From positions 64,746 to 128,745 of the forward strand of contig CAVBCV010000001.1 of assembly GCA_963594125.1 (NCBI GenBank): a stretch of DNA of 64,000 bases. The letters are read 5' to 3'. Within the stretch, counting starts at the first letter, position 1; the number at the start of each line of letters is the position of its first letter. The notes beneath the pieces were generated by a model, which did no database searches, was not told the DNA's origin, and saw nothing but the letters and a program-made list of their open reading frames with translations. The stretch comes from Lachnospiraceae bacterium. GTDB lineage: Bacteria > Pseudomonadota > Alphaproteobacteria > RF32 > CAG-239. The position numbers and the translations under genes were made by a program. Positions 12,806 through 17,615 of the stretch are shown here, one piece after another.

Positions 12806-13474
12806 ATGGAAAAATTGAATCTGAAAGAGCTTAAAGCTGCTGTTTTTGATTGGGATAATACGTTGGCGGAAAGCCGCACGGCGTTGGTTTATTGCGTTAA
12901 TCAGGTTTTGCAAGAATATAATATGCCGGAGTGGAATATTGTGAAAGCAAAAAGAGATAATACTCTTTCATTTAGGGATAATTTTCCGCGTATTTTCGGT
13001 GATAAAGCAGAGGAAGCCTATGAAAAATATACTAAAATTTATTTACAAAATGTCAGCAAAATGATTACGACTTTTCCTAAGACTCTTGAAGTGTTGCAAT
13101 TTTTAAAATCGCGAGACGTGAAGATTATGGTAATGAGCAACAAAGACCGCAAGCTGCTTGATTATGAGTTACCTTTGTTGTTTAATCCGGCGCTGTTTGA
13201 TAATGTGGTGTGCGGGCACGAGGCGATAAAAGATAAACCACACAGTGAACATTTGTTTTGGACGCTTAAAGATGTGTTTACCCCTCAGCAAATAAACAGG
13301 CAAAATGTATGGGTGGTCGGCGATAGTCCGCAAGACAGCGCATGCGCTAAAAATGCCGGAGCTCTGCCGATACGAATCGGAAAATCAATTTGGGAAGATG
13401 AAACTAACGATACTTCGGGTATTATATTTTTTGATTCATTTGTGGATTTTTATAAAACTCTGCTTTTATCTTAA
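12806..13474 (+). CDS. HAD-superfamily hydrolase.
   Basis: 222 aa. Motif I is VFDWDNTL (DxDxT), with a downstream GDSPQD motif IV. Confidence 0.7.
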   Translation: MEKLNLKELKAAVFDWDNTLAESRTALVYCVNQVLQEYNMPEWNIVKAKRDNTLSFRDNFPRIFGDKAEEAYEKYTKIYLQNVSKMITTFPKTLEVLQFLKSRDVKIMVMSNKDRKLLDYELPLLFNPALFDNVVCGHEAIKDKPHSEHLFWTLKDVFTPQQINRQNVWVVGDSPQDSACAKNAGALPIRIGKSIWEDETNDTSGIIFFDSFVDFYKTLLLS

Positions 13475-13524: not shown

Positions 13525-14706
13525 ATGGTTCGGGTTCGTCATTTAGGAAATTATATCAAAAAACTAAATAAAATTCTGCTTGCCGCGGTGCTGATTTGCA
13601 TTGTGTGCTTTAATGTGGTTAAATTTTGCCGGTTGGCGGAAACAAATAATAGGCAGATTATAAATTATCAGTCACCGGTTGACGAGTTGCAAGATTTTAG
13701 AACTCCTCTGCCTTTGGAGCTGTATTTTGCGGAAAATTACGCTGAAAATAAAGAGCTTAAAATAGCGGTGTTTGCTGTTGATGAGCGTGTTTTTGGCAAG
13801 CAAGCATTAAAAACACTGCAAAAGAAGTTAAACATGGTTCAAAATGGGCAGGGGTTGTTGGTTTTTAGCCATAATAATGCTGATTATGCTAATCGGCTTG
13901 CAGAAAAATTGCAATTGCAGCTGCAAAAAATTGAATATAAAGAATTTTCAGATAAAATTGTGGCGCAGATTAAAGCGCATATAGCGCAAAAAAATAAATA
14001 TGTGTTGTTGATTTTGGATATGGAAGAGCTTGAGAGTAAGCAAGCCGGATTACAAATTGCCAGAGAGCTTAATTTGCGTCCGCGAGTGTTTAACTTAAAT
14101 GATGAAATGCCGCGGGTTCATAAAACTAAAAAAACAGAGCTAAATGATGAAGATTTAAGTTTGGCACAGCAGGAAGAAAATTTAAAGAAGTTTGCGGCGG
14201 ATTATGAACCTCAATTAGCGCGGTTTTTGAAAGACGTGTATGCCGGTTTTTATAAAATGCCGGAATATTCAGCCGCTGATGAGCATTTGTTTGACAGAGG
14301 TGTGGCGCAAGTTTTGGCGATTGATGAAAATAACGGCATATATAAGCAATATGGCGATATTTCTGCCGATACGGCTTTGGCGCGTTCATTGCTTAAAGGT
14401 TTTACTTTGGCAAAACAAGAAATGCCTGAGGCTCAGTATAAGTTTTTTATTTTAACCCGCACAAATAAGAAAAAATACGCCGTTGAAGATGATTTTATAA
14501 AAGAGATTAAAGCCGGTGAAGACGGAATAATGCTGGTAAACGGCAATAGGCGGGCAATGTTTTTGCCTTATTTTTGGAATATTTATCCCGATAAAGAAAG
14601 TTTTATTAAAAACTTAAAAATCAGCGCCGGTTTAAGCCCGGATTATTGGTCAAAAAAAATAAAAGTTTATTATTTCAGAGCAGTGGAGATAAAATATGAA
14701 AATTAA
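13525..14706 (+). CDS. Membrane-anchored protein with a divergent C-terminal AMMECR1-like domain.
   Basis: 393 aa. N-terminal TM segment ILLAAVLICIVCF. The C-terminus, DGIMLVNGNRRAMFLPYFWNIYPDKESFIKNLKISAGLSPDYWSKKIKVYYFRAVEI, matches the AMMECR1 consensus (hGl..g.rrGtlLPqVwe..pdkeeFl..l..KAGL..d.W....v..F.a). The canonical LRGCIG cysteine is not evident. Confidence 0.55.
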   Translation: MVRVRHLGNYIKKLNKILLAAVLICIVCFNVVKFCRLAETNNRQIINYQSPVDELQDFRTPLPLELYFAENYAENKELKIAVFAVDERVFGKQALKTLQKKLNMVQNGQGLLVFSHNNADYANRLAEKLQLQLQKIEYKEFSDKIVAQIKAHIAQKNKYVLLILDMEELESKQAGLQIARELNLRPRVFNLNDEMPRVHKTKKTELNDEDLSLAQQEENLKKFAADYEPQLARFLKDVYAGFYKMPEYSAADEHLFDRGVAQVLAIDENNGIYKQYGDISADTALARSLLKGFTLAKQEMPEAQYKFFILTRTNKKKYAVEDDFIKEIKAGEDGIMLVNGNRRAMFLPYFWNIYPDKESFIKNLKISAGLSPDYWSKKIKVYYFRAVEIKYEN

Positions 14707-16414
14707 AGGATATGAAGTAAATTTCAGTGAAGAAGAACTTGATACGATTTTAACTGAAAAAACACGTGAAATAGAACTTATATCACGCGAGTTTGAAGGT
14801 TACAAAAGCCTTCCTATCGGTGATAAGAAGGCTATTGACCACTTAATTAAAGCTGCTGACATAATAAATAATGTGGCGCTTGAGCAGGATAATCCGTATA
14901 ATTTGGAAATTAAGCGCGAGATGGAAAAGTTGGCGGTTAATGACGCTTATGTTGCTAAAGTGCTGCAACTTTTTAATTGTTTGAACGGGGTTGCCGGAAA
15001 TAACGGCATAGATAAAGATCCGGTGCGGATTTTTAAGAATTTGCCGCTTTTTAAGGGTAAAAATTTTTATCCGACAGATTTATCGGAAGAAGAATTTCAT
15101 GAAATTATTTTAAGGATGGCGGAAAGAGGTAAAATTGATGAATTGAAAAAGATTTTATCTGCCCGCACCATGGTCAGAAGAAACGGCGATGAACTAAAAG
15201 CCATAGATTACACGGAGTATTTTGCGCCGCAGTTTTCTGAAGCTGCCAATGAGTTGGAAGTGGCGGCTTATTATTGCACGGAGCCGGAATTTAAGGAGTT
15301 TTTAAGTTGGCAAGTTCAGGCGTTGCTGCAAAATAATCAGGATATGGATATGCTGGCTGATAAGCATTGGGCATTGCTGCAAACGAATAATTTGGAATTT
15401 ACTATTTCACGTGAAAATTATGAAGATGAAATGACCGGAACAGTGTTCAACAATCCGGAAGTGGCTAAAATTATCAGTGATAATAATATTGAAGTTGTGG
15501 CAAAAGATACGCTTGGCTGCAGGGTGGGTATTGTTAATAAAGAAGGCACGGAAAACATTTTGAAGTTTAAGCAGACTATACCTTATTTAGCTCAGTGGAT
15601 GCCGCTTAATAATAAATATAAACAAAACAGTTTTTCTGAAAAAGACTTAAAACAAAATATGGTTGATGTTGATTTAATAGCCTTAACCGGTGATTATGCA
15701 ATGTGCCGCGGCGGTATTACGCAAGCGCAAAATTTGCCTAATAACGATAAAATTGCCGTAAAATGCGGCGGATGGCGGCGCAATGTTTATCATCGCCAGG
15801 TTTTGCTCAGCTATGATGTTGAAAATGAAAAGAAATTGCTTAATCGTTTGGTTGATCCAGAGTTGCATAAATATGTTGATCACTCGCGGATAATTATTTT
15901 TGATATAGGGCATGAAAACGGACATTCACTTGGTCCGACAGCAGAATATCAAAATGCGCTCGGCGTGTTTAAGCATATTATTGAAGAACATAAAGCCAAT
16001 GTGTTTTCTATTGCGTCAATAGCAGAACTGGCTAAAAAAGAAGAACGTTTTACTAAAGAAGAATTGAAAAAGATTTATGCTTCATGGGTGGTTGAAACAC
16101 TGTTTTTAAGAGCGCGACCGATTTTTTCACAGCCGCACCGCATGGCTTCATTAATAGAGTTTAACTACTTGTTTGAAAATAAAGTTATTTGGTTTGATAG
16201 CAATAAAAAGCTGCATATAGATTTTGATTTAATCGGTATGGTGGCGTACAGACTGCTTGAAGAGACAATCAGAGTTCAGCTTTCAAAAACGGCAAGTAAT
16301 GCTAAATCCTTTATTAATCGTTGGGCGGTTTGGGGTGAATGGTCGCGCCATATTGCTGATGTGCAGCAAGAGTTAGGCGTAAAGCCGTATATCAAAATTA
16401 TAACCAATTTTTAA
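14696..16414 (+). CDS. Putative zinc-dependent metallohydrolase or peptidase (HExxH motif), family unassigned.
   Basis: 572 aa. Motif FDIGHENGHSLGP (HENGH) with downstream Glu residues (IIEEHKA). The start has a GGAG RBS and overlaps the upstream gene by 11 nt, which implies translational coupling. Confidence 0.5.
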   Translation: MKIKGYEVNFSEEELDTILTEKTREIELISREFEGYKSLPIGDKKAIDHLIKAADIINNVALEQDNPYNLEIKREMEKLAVNDAYVAKVLQLFNCLNGVAGNNGIDKDPVRIFKNLPLFKGKNFYPTDLSEEEFHEIILRMAERGKIDELKKILSARTMVRRNGDELKAIDYTEYFAPQFSEAANELEVAAYYCTEPEFKEFLSWQVQALLQNNQDMDMLADKHWALLQTNNLEFTISRENYEDEMTGTVFNNPEVAKIISDNNIEVVAKDTLGCRVGIVNKEGTENILKFKQTIPYLAQWMPLNNKYKQNSFSEKDLKQNMVDVDLIALTGDYAMCRGGITQAQNLPNNDKIAVKCGGWRRNVYHRQVLLSYDVENEKKLLNRLVDPELHKYVDHSRIIIFDIGHENGHSLGPTAEYQNALGVFKHIIEEHKANVFSIASIAELAKKEERFTKEELKKIYASWVVETLFLRARPIFSQPHRMASLIEFNYLFENKVIWFDSNKKLHIDFDLIGMVAYRLLEETIRVQLSKTASNAKSFINRWAVWGEWSRHIADVQQELGVKPYIKIITNF

Positions 16415-16462: not shown

Positions 16463-16831
16463 ATGTTTGGAAAATTGATTTACGGACAATTTTCACTTAA
16501 AGAAACTTTTTGGAAATACGGAGTGTTAGGTATTTTCGGGTGTTCTTTGGTAACCAAAATTTTTAAAATGTTTCTGCTTAAACATCTGAAAGGTGTTTCA
16601 TTAGGCGTTTATTACACGCGTTATTTTTCACCGCTTAATATGGATAATACCATGCTGTTTTTAACCATAGCATATTTTGTTTGTGCGTTTGCTCTTACTG
16701 TATATTGCATTATGGTTATCTTCGGGGTTTGGCGCAGCGCGGCAGAATATGATAAAAGCGTGTGGATGCGCCATATCGCGAAACTGATGATTTTATTGAC
16801 GGTTTATGCCGGATTAATGTTCGGATTGTAG
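16463..16831 (+). CDS. Hypothetical small membrane protein.
   Basis: 122 aa with 3-4 hydrophobic helices. AAGGAG RBS. Confidence 0.55.
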   Translation: MFGKLIYGQFSLKETFWKYGVLGIFGCSLVTKIFKMFLLKHLKGVSLGVYYTRYFSPLNMDNTMLFLTIAYFVCAFALTVYCIMVIFGVWRSAAEYDKSVWMRHIAKLMILLTVYAGLMFGL

Positions 16832-16839
16832 GATAAATT

Positions 16840-16998
16840 ATGAAAAAAGTGTTTTTATTGTTTGTAATTACCATGTTGGGGGCTTGTGTGGTATCAGGTG
16901 ATTTTCCTGAAAATCGTAATCGGTTGCATGAGTTGGGGCGTGATGATGTTTACTGCCAAAAAAATCCTGACAAGTGTATAGACGGCATACCGTGGTAA
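16840..16998 (+). CDS. Small lipoprotein, not in the ORF track because it is shorter than 60 aa.
   Basis: 52 aa: MKKVFLLFVITMLGAC, with a lipobox L-G-A-C, then VVSGDFPENRNRLHELGRDDVYCQKNPDKCIDGIPW. AGGAT RBS. Confidence 0.5.
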   Translation: MKKVFLLFVITMLGACVVSGDFPENRNRLHELGRDDVYCQKNPDKCIDGIPW

Positions 16999-17018: not shown

Positions 17019-17615
17019 TCAGGGTTGGCGCTCTATAAAGCGGCGCAATGTGCTGCGCTGAACGTCTAACCGGTTGGCAATTTCAGTTTTTGAGCAGCCT
17101 TTAGATAATAACTGCTGAATTTTACTCACGCTTTTGGAAAGCTTGAGCTTTTTTGATTCAGCAGAAAAAGGGCGTCCGAGCTTTTTGCCGGAAGCTTTTA
17201 GGTTGGCAAGCGATGATTTGGTGCGCTGTGAGATTAAATTACGCTCAATTTCAGCCGCTAAGCCGAAGGCAAAAGCCAAAACTTTAGACTGAATATCATT
17301 ACCTAAGCGATAATTTTCTTTTAAAGTCCAAACCTGACAATTTTTGCTTAAACATATTTCTAAGATGCGCATAACTTCAAGCAAAGAGCGCCCTAAACGC
17401 GATATTTCGCAGGCAATTAAAATATCGCCTTCTTGCAGAGAATCTAATAAACTTCCTAATTTACGGCTTTTAAGAGCTTTGCGTGATGAAATTTTTTCCT
17501 CAACCCATTGATTAATTTTTATGCGATTCTTTTTAACGAATTGTTCAATTTCATAGTGTTGGTGTTCAAGGGTTTGCTTTTGCGAGCTGACGCGAATATA
17601 GCCAATAACAGACAT
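17019..17615 (-). CDS. Serine recombinase (resolvase/invertase family). It is an orphan with no transposase nearby.
   Basis: 198 aa. N-terminal catalytic motif IGYIRVSSQKQTLEHQ with the Ser nucleophile, and a C-terminal HTH (CSKTEIANRLDVQRSTLRRF). Confidence 0.85.
   Translation of the reverse strand: MSVIGYIRVSSQKQTLEHQHYEIEQFVKKNRIKINQWVEEKISSRKALKSRKLGSLLDSLQEGDILIACEISRLGRSLLEVMRILEICLSKNCQVWTLKENYRLGNDIQSKVLAFAFGLAAEIERNLISQRTKSSLANLKASGKKLGRPFSAESKKLKLSKSVSKIQQLLSKGCSKTEIANRLDVQRSTLRRFIERQP

Follow-up and report, generated by a model that had tools for sequence, protein, structure and literature searches.

What does a bacterium encode in a two-gene unit in which a membrane-anchored protein with an AMMECR1-like end overlaps the gene for an HExxH metallohydrolase? 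The question is raised by a locus at positions 13,525 to 16,414 of the window, the 64,000-nucleotide (64-kb) stretch analysed here (GenBank assembly GCA_963594125.1, contig CAVBCV010000001.1, positions 64,746 to 128,745 of the forward strand), which is deposited as Lachnospiraceae bacterium and placed by GTDB in the Alphaproteobacteria (RF32; CAG-239). What AMMECR1 does biochemically is unknown, and the function of Memo is poorly understood; both proteins are conserved from archaea to humans, and Memo-AMMECR1 systems were reportedly described by Burroughs et al. in 2019 (JBC). We consider it fairly probable that the two genes are the remnant of a lineage-specific operon, in which the first product is a pseudoenzyme kept as the membrane-anchored partner of a peptidase, the second product. 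The features concerned, in which TM stands for transmembrane and aa for amino acids, are the following.

13525..14706, + strand: gene 1, degenerate orthologue of a TM-Memo-AMMECR1 fusion by its open reading frame (ORF) and alignments, 393 aa
14696..16414, + strand: gene 2, homologue of short M49 (DPP III-like) zinc metallopeptidases by structure and profile matches, 572 aa
14685..14706, + strand: coupling junction, read from the junction sequence, with GGAG, the ATG of gene 2 and the TAA of gene 1

The two ORFs, their 11-nt overlap and the GGAG ribosome-binding site (RBS) reported in the first-pass annotation agree with the ORF list and the junction sequence. The GGAG (14685-14688) lies 7 nt 5' of the gene 2 ATG at 14696 and is embedded in the conserved gene 1 codons for V-E-I-K; the gene 1 TAA occupies 14704-14706, and the overlap spans 14696..14706. 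A one-genome-per-species scan yielded 80 loci, 86 in all with those collected earlier. The 80 scan loci all belong to gut or rumen metagenome-assembled genomes (MAGs) named 'Alphaproteobacteria bacterium', though some MAGs carry the names Azospirillum sp. or Candidatus Scatocola, assigned by NCBI to the Rhodospirillales. The identical 11-nt overlap occurs in 70 of the 83 related species with a gene 1-derived ORF, and since gene 2 identity falls to 56% among them, this conservation is far beyond chance. The earlier description of a conserved, translationally coupled pair is supported by these 70 loci, which keep both the overlap and the embedded RBS. A scan for promoters and terminators was uninformative, with counts at or below shuffle expectation.

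The gene 1 product carries a TM helix at about residues 17-35 within a helix predicted by AlphaFold2 at 2-43 (best 19-mer Kyte-Doolittle mean 2.68), in agreement with the N-terminal anchor first noticed. It is followed by a conserved juxtamembrane motif (Y48..D53..R59-x-P61), an alpha/beta domain at about 63-200, here called the Memo remnant, a disordered linker (189-208) and an AMMECR1 fold at about 213-389. The Pfam AMMECR1 profile PF01871 gives a significant though partial match (E=1.8e-11; 44.2 bits, cut-off 25), which pairs residues 295-387 with profile positions 78-166 of 168, and TIGR04335 reaches 67.6 bits. The canonical LRGCIG motif, the cysteine of which had been reported missing, is indeed absent; in the segment aligned with it, I272-Y-K-Q275-Y-G277, the place of the cysteine is taken by Gln275. 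In AMMECR1 proteins this cysteine is predicted to be catalytic (PMC4075521). An adjacent 11-residue block (..AAMADTRF) has also been lost. In Foldseek searches, the region at about 213-389 of the model matched 1WSC, 1ZQ7 and 1VAJ, all three solved structures of the AMMECR1 family, with E=3e-8 to 9e-7 over 144-188 columns (1VAJ: target-normalised TM-score 0.63, 181 columns, E=9e-7). A complete AMMECR1 fold is therefore predicted. The C-terminal AMMECR1 similarity proposed from the letters alone thus stands in the profile match, while the predicted fold extends beyond the C-terminal 120 residues to which it had been assigned.

The remaining part of gene 1, about 230 residues previously described as of unknown nature, does not represent a novel partner; by orthology it comprises the TM anchor and an eroded Memo domain. 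In species with a gene 2 of about 60% identity, the position of gene 1 is taken, again with the 11-nt overlap, by a gene for a protein of 516-519 aa. Behind an N-terminal TM anchor this protein contains complete domains of both families, Memo (PF01875, E~1e-50) and AMMECR1 (PF01871, E~1e-44). Four fusions, two of which have intact motifs, were scored and all exceed the cut-offs of TIGR04336 and TIGR04335; the intact fusions reach 246 bits as AmmeMemoRadiSam protein B (cut-off 26) and 187 bits as protein A (cut-off 99, under which the window gene 1 falls). The fusion at locus L004 aligns with human MEMO1 (3BCZ, E=1.5e-18), with PHAGY, GPSH and SDxxH in register. Gene 1 is colinear with the fusions end to end (hhalign E=1.7e-53; BLASTP 2e-30 over residues 174-390) and has in common with them the TM anchor, the juxtamembrane motif Y..S..D.L..FR.P, the tail of the Memo domain (LNLRPRVFNL vs LNYKPEVLAL), the linker and the whole AMMECR1 domain.

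In the window lineage the fusion has been shortened by about 125 residues. Three large deletions in the Memo domain removed GPSH and HSCG, and substitutions turned PHAGY into AVDERV and ADLSH into LDMEE, which leaves gene 1 with none of the four Memo metal-site motifs (PHAGY, GPSH, DLSH and HSCG). The sites concerned are those that we take to be equivalent to the metal-site residues His49, His81, His192 and Cys244 of human MEMO1. Alignment and position thus identify gene 1 as the positional orthologue of the intact TM-Memo-AMMECR1 fusion, and it is a cut-down, probably catalytically dead descendant of it; because the Memo motifs, the LRGCIG cysteine and the adjacent 11-residue block are lost, the ancestral chemistry should no longer be possible. 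It had been suggested that AMMECR1 is found here away from its usual partners. Since gene 1 is orthologous to the intact fusion, the canonical Memo partner is in fact present, first fused and then decayed. No radical-SAM gene is found nearby, and the coupled gene encodes an M49-like peptidase.

A segment of the Memo remnant, residues 82-111 (VFAVDERVFGKQALKTLQKKLNMVQNGQGL; positions 13768-13857), gave weak phmmer matches (E ~1e-3) to TAL-effector repeats ..GGKQALETVQRLLPVL.., which were judged to be chance similarity inflated by the many repeats in the target.

The upstream gene of the 86 loci falls into a series of size classes.

515-541 aa, full-length match to the fusion profile: 45 of 86 loci, 41 with both PHAG and RGCIG
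Full length, motifs lost: L053 and L085
489 aa: L083
478-485 aa: 5 loci
436 aa: 1 locus
408 aa: 1 locus
377-399 aa: 14 loci, including the window
357-367 aa: 7 loci
159-184 aa: 9 loci
Gene 1 remnant joined in frame to gene 2: L025
Gene 1 absent: L005 and L026

These classes form a natural series of 541, 521, 489, ~485, 436, 408, ~390, ~360 and ~180 aa, ending in absence, and the graded intermediates between intact fusions and the window gene include L087, L054 and L083. In the forms of 159-184 aa the match to the short-form profile is confined to its first ~186 positions, which hold the TM anchor and the Memo remnant, and the proteins end in ...EIKNEN (compare ...EIKYEN in the window); the AMMECR1 domain was therefore cleanly excised, with the overlap junction kept. 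These two N-terminal parts are retained by every degenerate form, including those in which AMMECR1 has been deleted cleanly back to the overlap. In a neighbour-joining tree of gene 2, the window falls within a major clade in which all members are degenerate, and the sister clade is mostly intact with at least four independent degenerations; the tree thus contains one old event and at least four independent ones. At L025, an ORF of 746 aa (L025:1098-3335, P0072) carries a 176-aa gene 1 remnant, consisting of the TM anchor and the Memo remnant, in frame with gene 2, ...LTEIK being followed directly by MVINGYELN....

The decay series bears on an account in which gene 1 keeps a function of its own in the conserved C-terminal AMMECR1 subdomain, for example cysteine-independent binding of a ligand or substrate, and forms a two-enzyme module with the peptidase. 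Close homologues of gene 1 amount to only 9 clusters of 380-393 aa with 31-100% identity. The C-terminal 95 residues are the most conserved part, and 21 invariant positions between D333 and E388 (including D333, G334, G340, R342, P348, W351 and P355) are common to the short forms and the intact fusions. The short forms also share a new motif, Y-x-Q-[FY]-G-D, where LRGCIG stood, and together with the full predicted fold these features favour a retained function in this part of the protein. However, the nine species of the 159-184-aa subclade dropped the whole AMMECR1 domain yet kept the TM anchor, the Memo remnant and the overlap, two further species lost gene 1 altogether, and the predicted catalytic cysteine is gone along with the neighbouring block. 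A residual function of this kind is therefore rather unlikely.

Selection was estimated by the Nei-Gojobori method in six close pairs as the ratio of nonsynonymous to synonymous substitution rates (dN/dS). The ratio is 0.16-0.33 over the whole of gene 1 and 0.035-0.076 in gene 2, a constraint on gene 1 that is 3-5 times weaker. It stays below 0.5 in each of the four segments of gene 1, namely the TM region, the Memo remnant and the N-terminal and C-terminal halves of AMMECR1; the C-terminal AMMECR1 segment (0.14-0.27) has the lowest value in just two of the six comparisons. Since the ratio is this low in every segment, gene 1 is under purifying selection and is not a pseudogene. Identities in gene 1 and gene 2 agree with the weaker constraint, at 83% vs 94%, 54% vs 88% and 31% vs 60%, and the gene 1 ORFs stay intact down to the lowest of these values.

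These figures also bear on the idea that gene 1 is a functionless, decaying gene, the frame of which is held open solely for the translation of gene 2 through an overlapping upstream ORF. The position of the gene 2 RBS inside gene 1, the nearly invariant overlap, the relaxed selection and the repeated, independent shrinkage of gene 1 would all be accounted for in this way. The dN/dS values, in contrast, indicate selection on the amino-acid sequence and not on the frame alone, and specific motifs are invariant at identities as low as 31%. Moreover, 390 codons are more than a leader would need, yet within a subclade the size class stays constant, and at L005 and L026 gene 2 uses its own site after the HAD-family hydrolase gene that precedes the pair. 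We thus find a mere coupling leader improbable.

Gene 2 is the better conserved half of the pair. A phmmer search of protein sequences from the PDB matched residues 42-560 to 6EOM (E=5.8e-22), and a profile of 14 gene 2 sequences matched 6EOM with E=1e-41 and 5ZUM, the DPP III of Corallococcus, with E=1.4e-15. The entry 6EOM, deposited as 'MutT/NUDIX family protein', is the DPP III of Caldithrix abyssi (CaDPP III; PMC5805324). The AlphaFold2 model (33 sequences; pLDDT 89.4, pTM 0.89) has the two-lobe fold of DPP III. In Foldseek it matched 6EOM with TM-scores of 0.75/0.81 (E=1.5e-27) and 5ZUM with about 0.79/0.85 (E=1.4e-23), followed by the DPP III of Bacteroides, human and yeast, and the top 17 PDB matches are all DPP III. 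The first zinc motif, H406-E-N-G-H410, aligns with HEISH of CaDPP III, and the second, E430-E431-H-K433-A434-N435 (EEHKAN), with EECKAD. The zinc ligands of CaDPP III are H379, H383 and E412 (PMC5805324), to which H406, H410 and E431 of gene 2 are equivalent. These residues and E407, K433, A434, H481 and R482 are invariant in 86 homologues, and residue 430 is Glu in 85 of the 86. The HENGH motif and downstream Glu residues noticed in the first-pass annotation thus proved to be conserved features.

The M49 family was among those proposed for testing, and the PDB profile and the fold both point to it, Pfam itself being silent; the HExxH protein accordingly resolves to a known family and is no orphan hydrolase. 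On the strength of the 6EOM and 5ZUM matches and the invariant zinc-ligand equivalents, gene 2 is assigned, by alignment and model, to a bacterial subgroup of M49 whose members are short (~550 aa) and have a pentapeptide motif. This subgroup is numerous and otherwise uncharacterised (PMC5805324); the gene 2 profile matches 1192 clusters (50% clustering, E<=1e-3). By analogy with the Caldithrix and Corallococcus enzymes, gene 2 most likely hydrolyses peptides via a zinc site formed by His406, His410 and Glu431. No signal peptide, TM helix or other hydrophobic segment was found in its sequence.

Codon 435 (15998-16000) of gene 2 specifies Asn in the window and 23 other species and Asp in 62. The Asn435 forms are nearly all in the clade with degenerate or absent gene 1, which may be phylogenetic signal alone. 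Beyond DPP III, Foldseek matched the gene 2 model to the Fe2+/pterin-dependent PolE enzymes 9J30, 9J2E and 9J3G (E ~2e-7, TM-score 0.41/0.60), so that an M49-like fold can evidently host chemistry other than peptide hydrolysis. That gene 2 itself is such a non-peptidase, performing metal-dependent small-molecule chemistry with the HAD-family and Memo-AMMECR1 proteins as pathway partners, is highly improbable: the PolE resemblance (9J30 and 9J2E), the lack of a Pfam M49 match, the consistent linkage to a HAD hydrolase and the N435 of the window, where the second M49 motif has D/E, would fit it, but the protein is far closer to characterised DPP III (6EOM E=1.5e-27, 5ZUM E=1.4e-23) than to PolE, and both M49 zinc motifs are kept and invariant.

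The favoured reading, that gene 1 is a pseudoenzyme retained as a partner of the peptidase, may be put as follows. The ancestor would have possessed a membrane-anchored fusion of Memo and AMMECR1 (proteins B and A in one chain), coupled by the 11-nt overlap to a short M49-like peptidase. In the window lineage the fusion shrank and lost the Memo motifs and the AMMECR1 cysteine, and with them the ancestral chemistry. Its product may now act as a non-catalytic membrane-anchored tether or regulator of a peptidase that is predicted to be still active, and translational coupling would keep the two products in fixed proportion. The conserved overlap with its embedded RBS, the retained TM anchor and Memo remnant, the in-frame fusion at L025 (P0072) and the lack of any hydrophobic segment in gene 2 are consistent with such a partnership.

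Several observations weigh against this reading. L005 and L026 keep gene 2 although they have no gene 1, so the partner is not obligatory. The charges flanking the TM helix (K+R 3.2 on the N-terminal and 1.75 on the C-terminal side; N>C in 54 of 83 loci) lean towards an N-in/C-out topology, which would place the domains of gene 1 in the periplasm, while gene 2, which lacks a signal peptide, would be in the other compartment. The L025 junction differs from that of its neighbour L024 by one A in a run of A residues; P0072 is therefore either a true Rosetta-stone fusion or the result of a homopolymer error in the assembly. The gene 1 model is of moderate quality (pLDDT 69.5, pTM 0.45, 9 sequences), with pLDDT of about 70-87 in the AMMECR1 region. 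Direct homology of the Memo remnant is weak: gene 1 has no Memo profile match at E<=1 in Pfam or NCBIfam, and when residues 63-172 were compared by hhalign with the orthologues' Memo core, the result was E=0.004 with a probability of 8% (controls 0.26-0.29), improving to E=4.7e-5 when the tail of the remnant was included. Foldseek found no significant Memo/LigB match for the alpha/beta domain (64-189), only generic Rossmann-like folds at E ~0.07 or weaker. For these reasons the descent of this region from a Memo domain, which position, colinearity and intermediates all indicate, rests mainly on these three. Finally, gene 2 matched no Pfam or NCBIfam family at E<=1, Peptidase_M49 included, save for a spurious Transposase_31, so that its membership of M49 is based on the solved M49 structures.

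The non-canonical two-gene module originally envisaged survives in part. The pair is conserved and coupled, but the term overstates the case: no catalytic signature is left in gene 1, L005 and L026 do without the gene, and the gene 2 homologues of out-group genomes have no Memo/AMMECR1 neighbour.

The genes around the pair are likewise conserved.

12806..13474, + strand: HAD-family hydrolase, 222 aa, found in 79 of 86 loci
16463..16831, + strand: hydrophobic (multi-pass membrane) ORF, 122 aa, no family match, 3' of gene 2 in 78 of 86 loci
16840..16998, + strand: 52-aa ORF with a lipoprotein-type signal, MKKVFLLFVITMLGAC, following the 122-aa ORF in 68 of 86 loci
17019..17615, - strand: serine recombinase (resolvase and helix-turn-helix), directly after the block in the window

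In 68 of the 77 loci with enough flanking sequence, the HAD gene lies no more than 2 kb upstream. The 52-aa ORF, which contains two further cysteines and is not mentioned in the first-pass annotation, begins 8 nt past the 122-aa membrane ORF. The conserved block consists of dnaE, serS, the HAD gene, gene 1, gene 2, the 122-aa membrane ORF and the 52-aa ORF, the last five adjoining serS and dnaE in about 80 species. The pair thus sits in core synteny and not in an accessory island, contrary to the 'stretch of accessory genes' inferred initially. At L001 a resolvase of 198 aa is also found nearby, set apart from the block by genes of a CDP-alcohol phosphatidyltransferase-family protein and a phosphatidylserine decarboxylase; these two genes are missing at this position of the window, which suggests a local rearrangement.

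A linked radical-SAM gene was sought as the canonical third partner. No CxxxCxxC ORF is present among the 54 ORFs of the window, and no candidate partner radical-SAM gene (TIGR04337) was found in the flanks of the 86 loci (up to 6 kb on each side), where the radical-SAM-like CxxxCxxC ORFs of at least 250 aa comprise one RlmN-like and two MiaB-like proteins only. As these scans of window and flanks gave no candidate, the third partner appears to be unlinked to the pair. In one large subclade a gene of about 1.4 kb is inserted between gene 2 and the 122-aa ORF (L075:7713-9095, with equivalents in about 35 loci, e.g. L034, L054 and L087). It was considered as the missing radical-SAM enzyme and ruled out, since it encodes an L-serine dehydratase (SDH_beta and SDH_alpha) of 458-460 aa; it is absent from the window.

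The range of the pairing was examined in metagenomes. A first scan used P0131, the closest representative of the out-group, and gave no loci; a second, with an out-group alignment, recovered 78 loci with a complete gene 2-like ORF. A Memo/AMMECR1-derived ORF within 5 kb was present only at L159 and L167, which belong to the clade, and was lacking at all 76 out-group loci. The pairing of gene 1 and gene 2 is thus restricted to a clade of uncultured gut and rumen Alphaproteobacteria: the co-occurrence in other genomes that was to be checked is seen across about 85 species of this clade and stops at its border. The nearest out-group homologues, P0132-P0153 (608-655 aa), are extended at the N-terminus by about 55-85 low-complexity residues (17-39 in two of the sequences read); this extension was considered as a possible signal peptide or TM anchor and rejected because it is hydrophilic.

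The finding is one of lineage-restricted gene decay, without a demonstrated new mechanism. A bolder proposal, which we put forward tentatively and consider doubtful, is that Memo-AMMECR1 forms a membrane-bound complex with the M49 peptidase here and works with no radical-SAM enzyme encoded next to it. If this were true, the long-sought substrate of Memo and AMMECR1 would be a peptide or a protein N-terminus, and the deletion series would show the TM anchor and the Memo remnant to be the minimal piece that holds the peptidase at the membrane once the chemistry is abandoned. The coupling to a DPP III-like peptidase in about 85 species and the deletion series offer a testable hint of peptide substrates, and the series itself serves as a natural experiment that can tell which parts of the fusion are important. 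The finding also corrects the annotation that gut MAGs probably carry, with gene 2 called 'hypothetical protein' and gene 1 at best 'AMMECR1'. For Memo/AMMECR1 biology the locus provides a modest lead; as a system it is a curiosity of one lineage and not of a new kind.

Compared with known systems, gene 1 resembles other pseudoenzymes in having lost its catalytic residues while keeping its fold and being under purifying selection. It differs from them in that the partner or regulatory role is inferred and in that the decay is ongoing, being complete in some lineages. Gene 2 resembles the DPP III of Caldithrix abyssi (6EOM, HEISH) and Corallococcus sp. EGB (5ZUM, HELMH) in its length (~550-570 aa), its predicted two-lobe fold (TM-scores 0.75-0.85) and the HExxH pentapeptide and EExKA(D) second motif at aligned positions (PMC5805324, PMC9820243). 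Its identity to them is 17-22% over the Foldseek alignments, its second motif in the window is EEHKAN against EExKAD in the relatives, and, unlike the 76 out-group loci, it is coupled to a gene derived from Memo-AMMECR1.

With respect to AmmeMemoRadiSam proteins A (AMMECR1, TIGR04335) and B (Memo, TIGR04336), the intact orthologues pass both cut-offs and carry PHAGY, GPSH, DLSH and LRGCIG, and the window gene 1 is colinear with them and retains the predicted AMMECR1 fold and C-terminal signature. In contrast, it fails both curated cut-offs and is devoid of the Memo motifs and the AMMECR1 cysteine, and no partner radical-SAM gene occurs in the 64-kb window or beside the 86 loci; instead, gene 1 has an N-terminal TM anchor and is coupled to the gene of an M49-like peptidase. 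Systems and fusions of Memo and AMMECR1 are already known, from work cited in PMC7159879 and from the TIGR04335 and TIGR04336 models, as are short M49 enzymes with the pentapeptide motif (PMC5805324, PMC9820243). What appears to be previously undescribed is their combination, a TM-anchored fusion coupled to an M49-like peptidase without a linked radical-SAM gene, together with the graded series of its decay.

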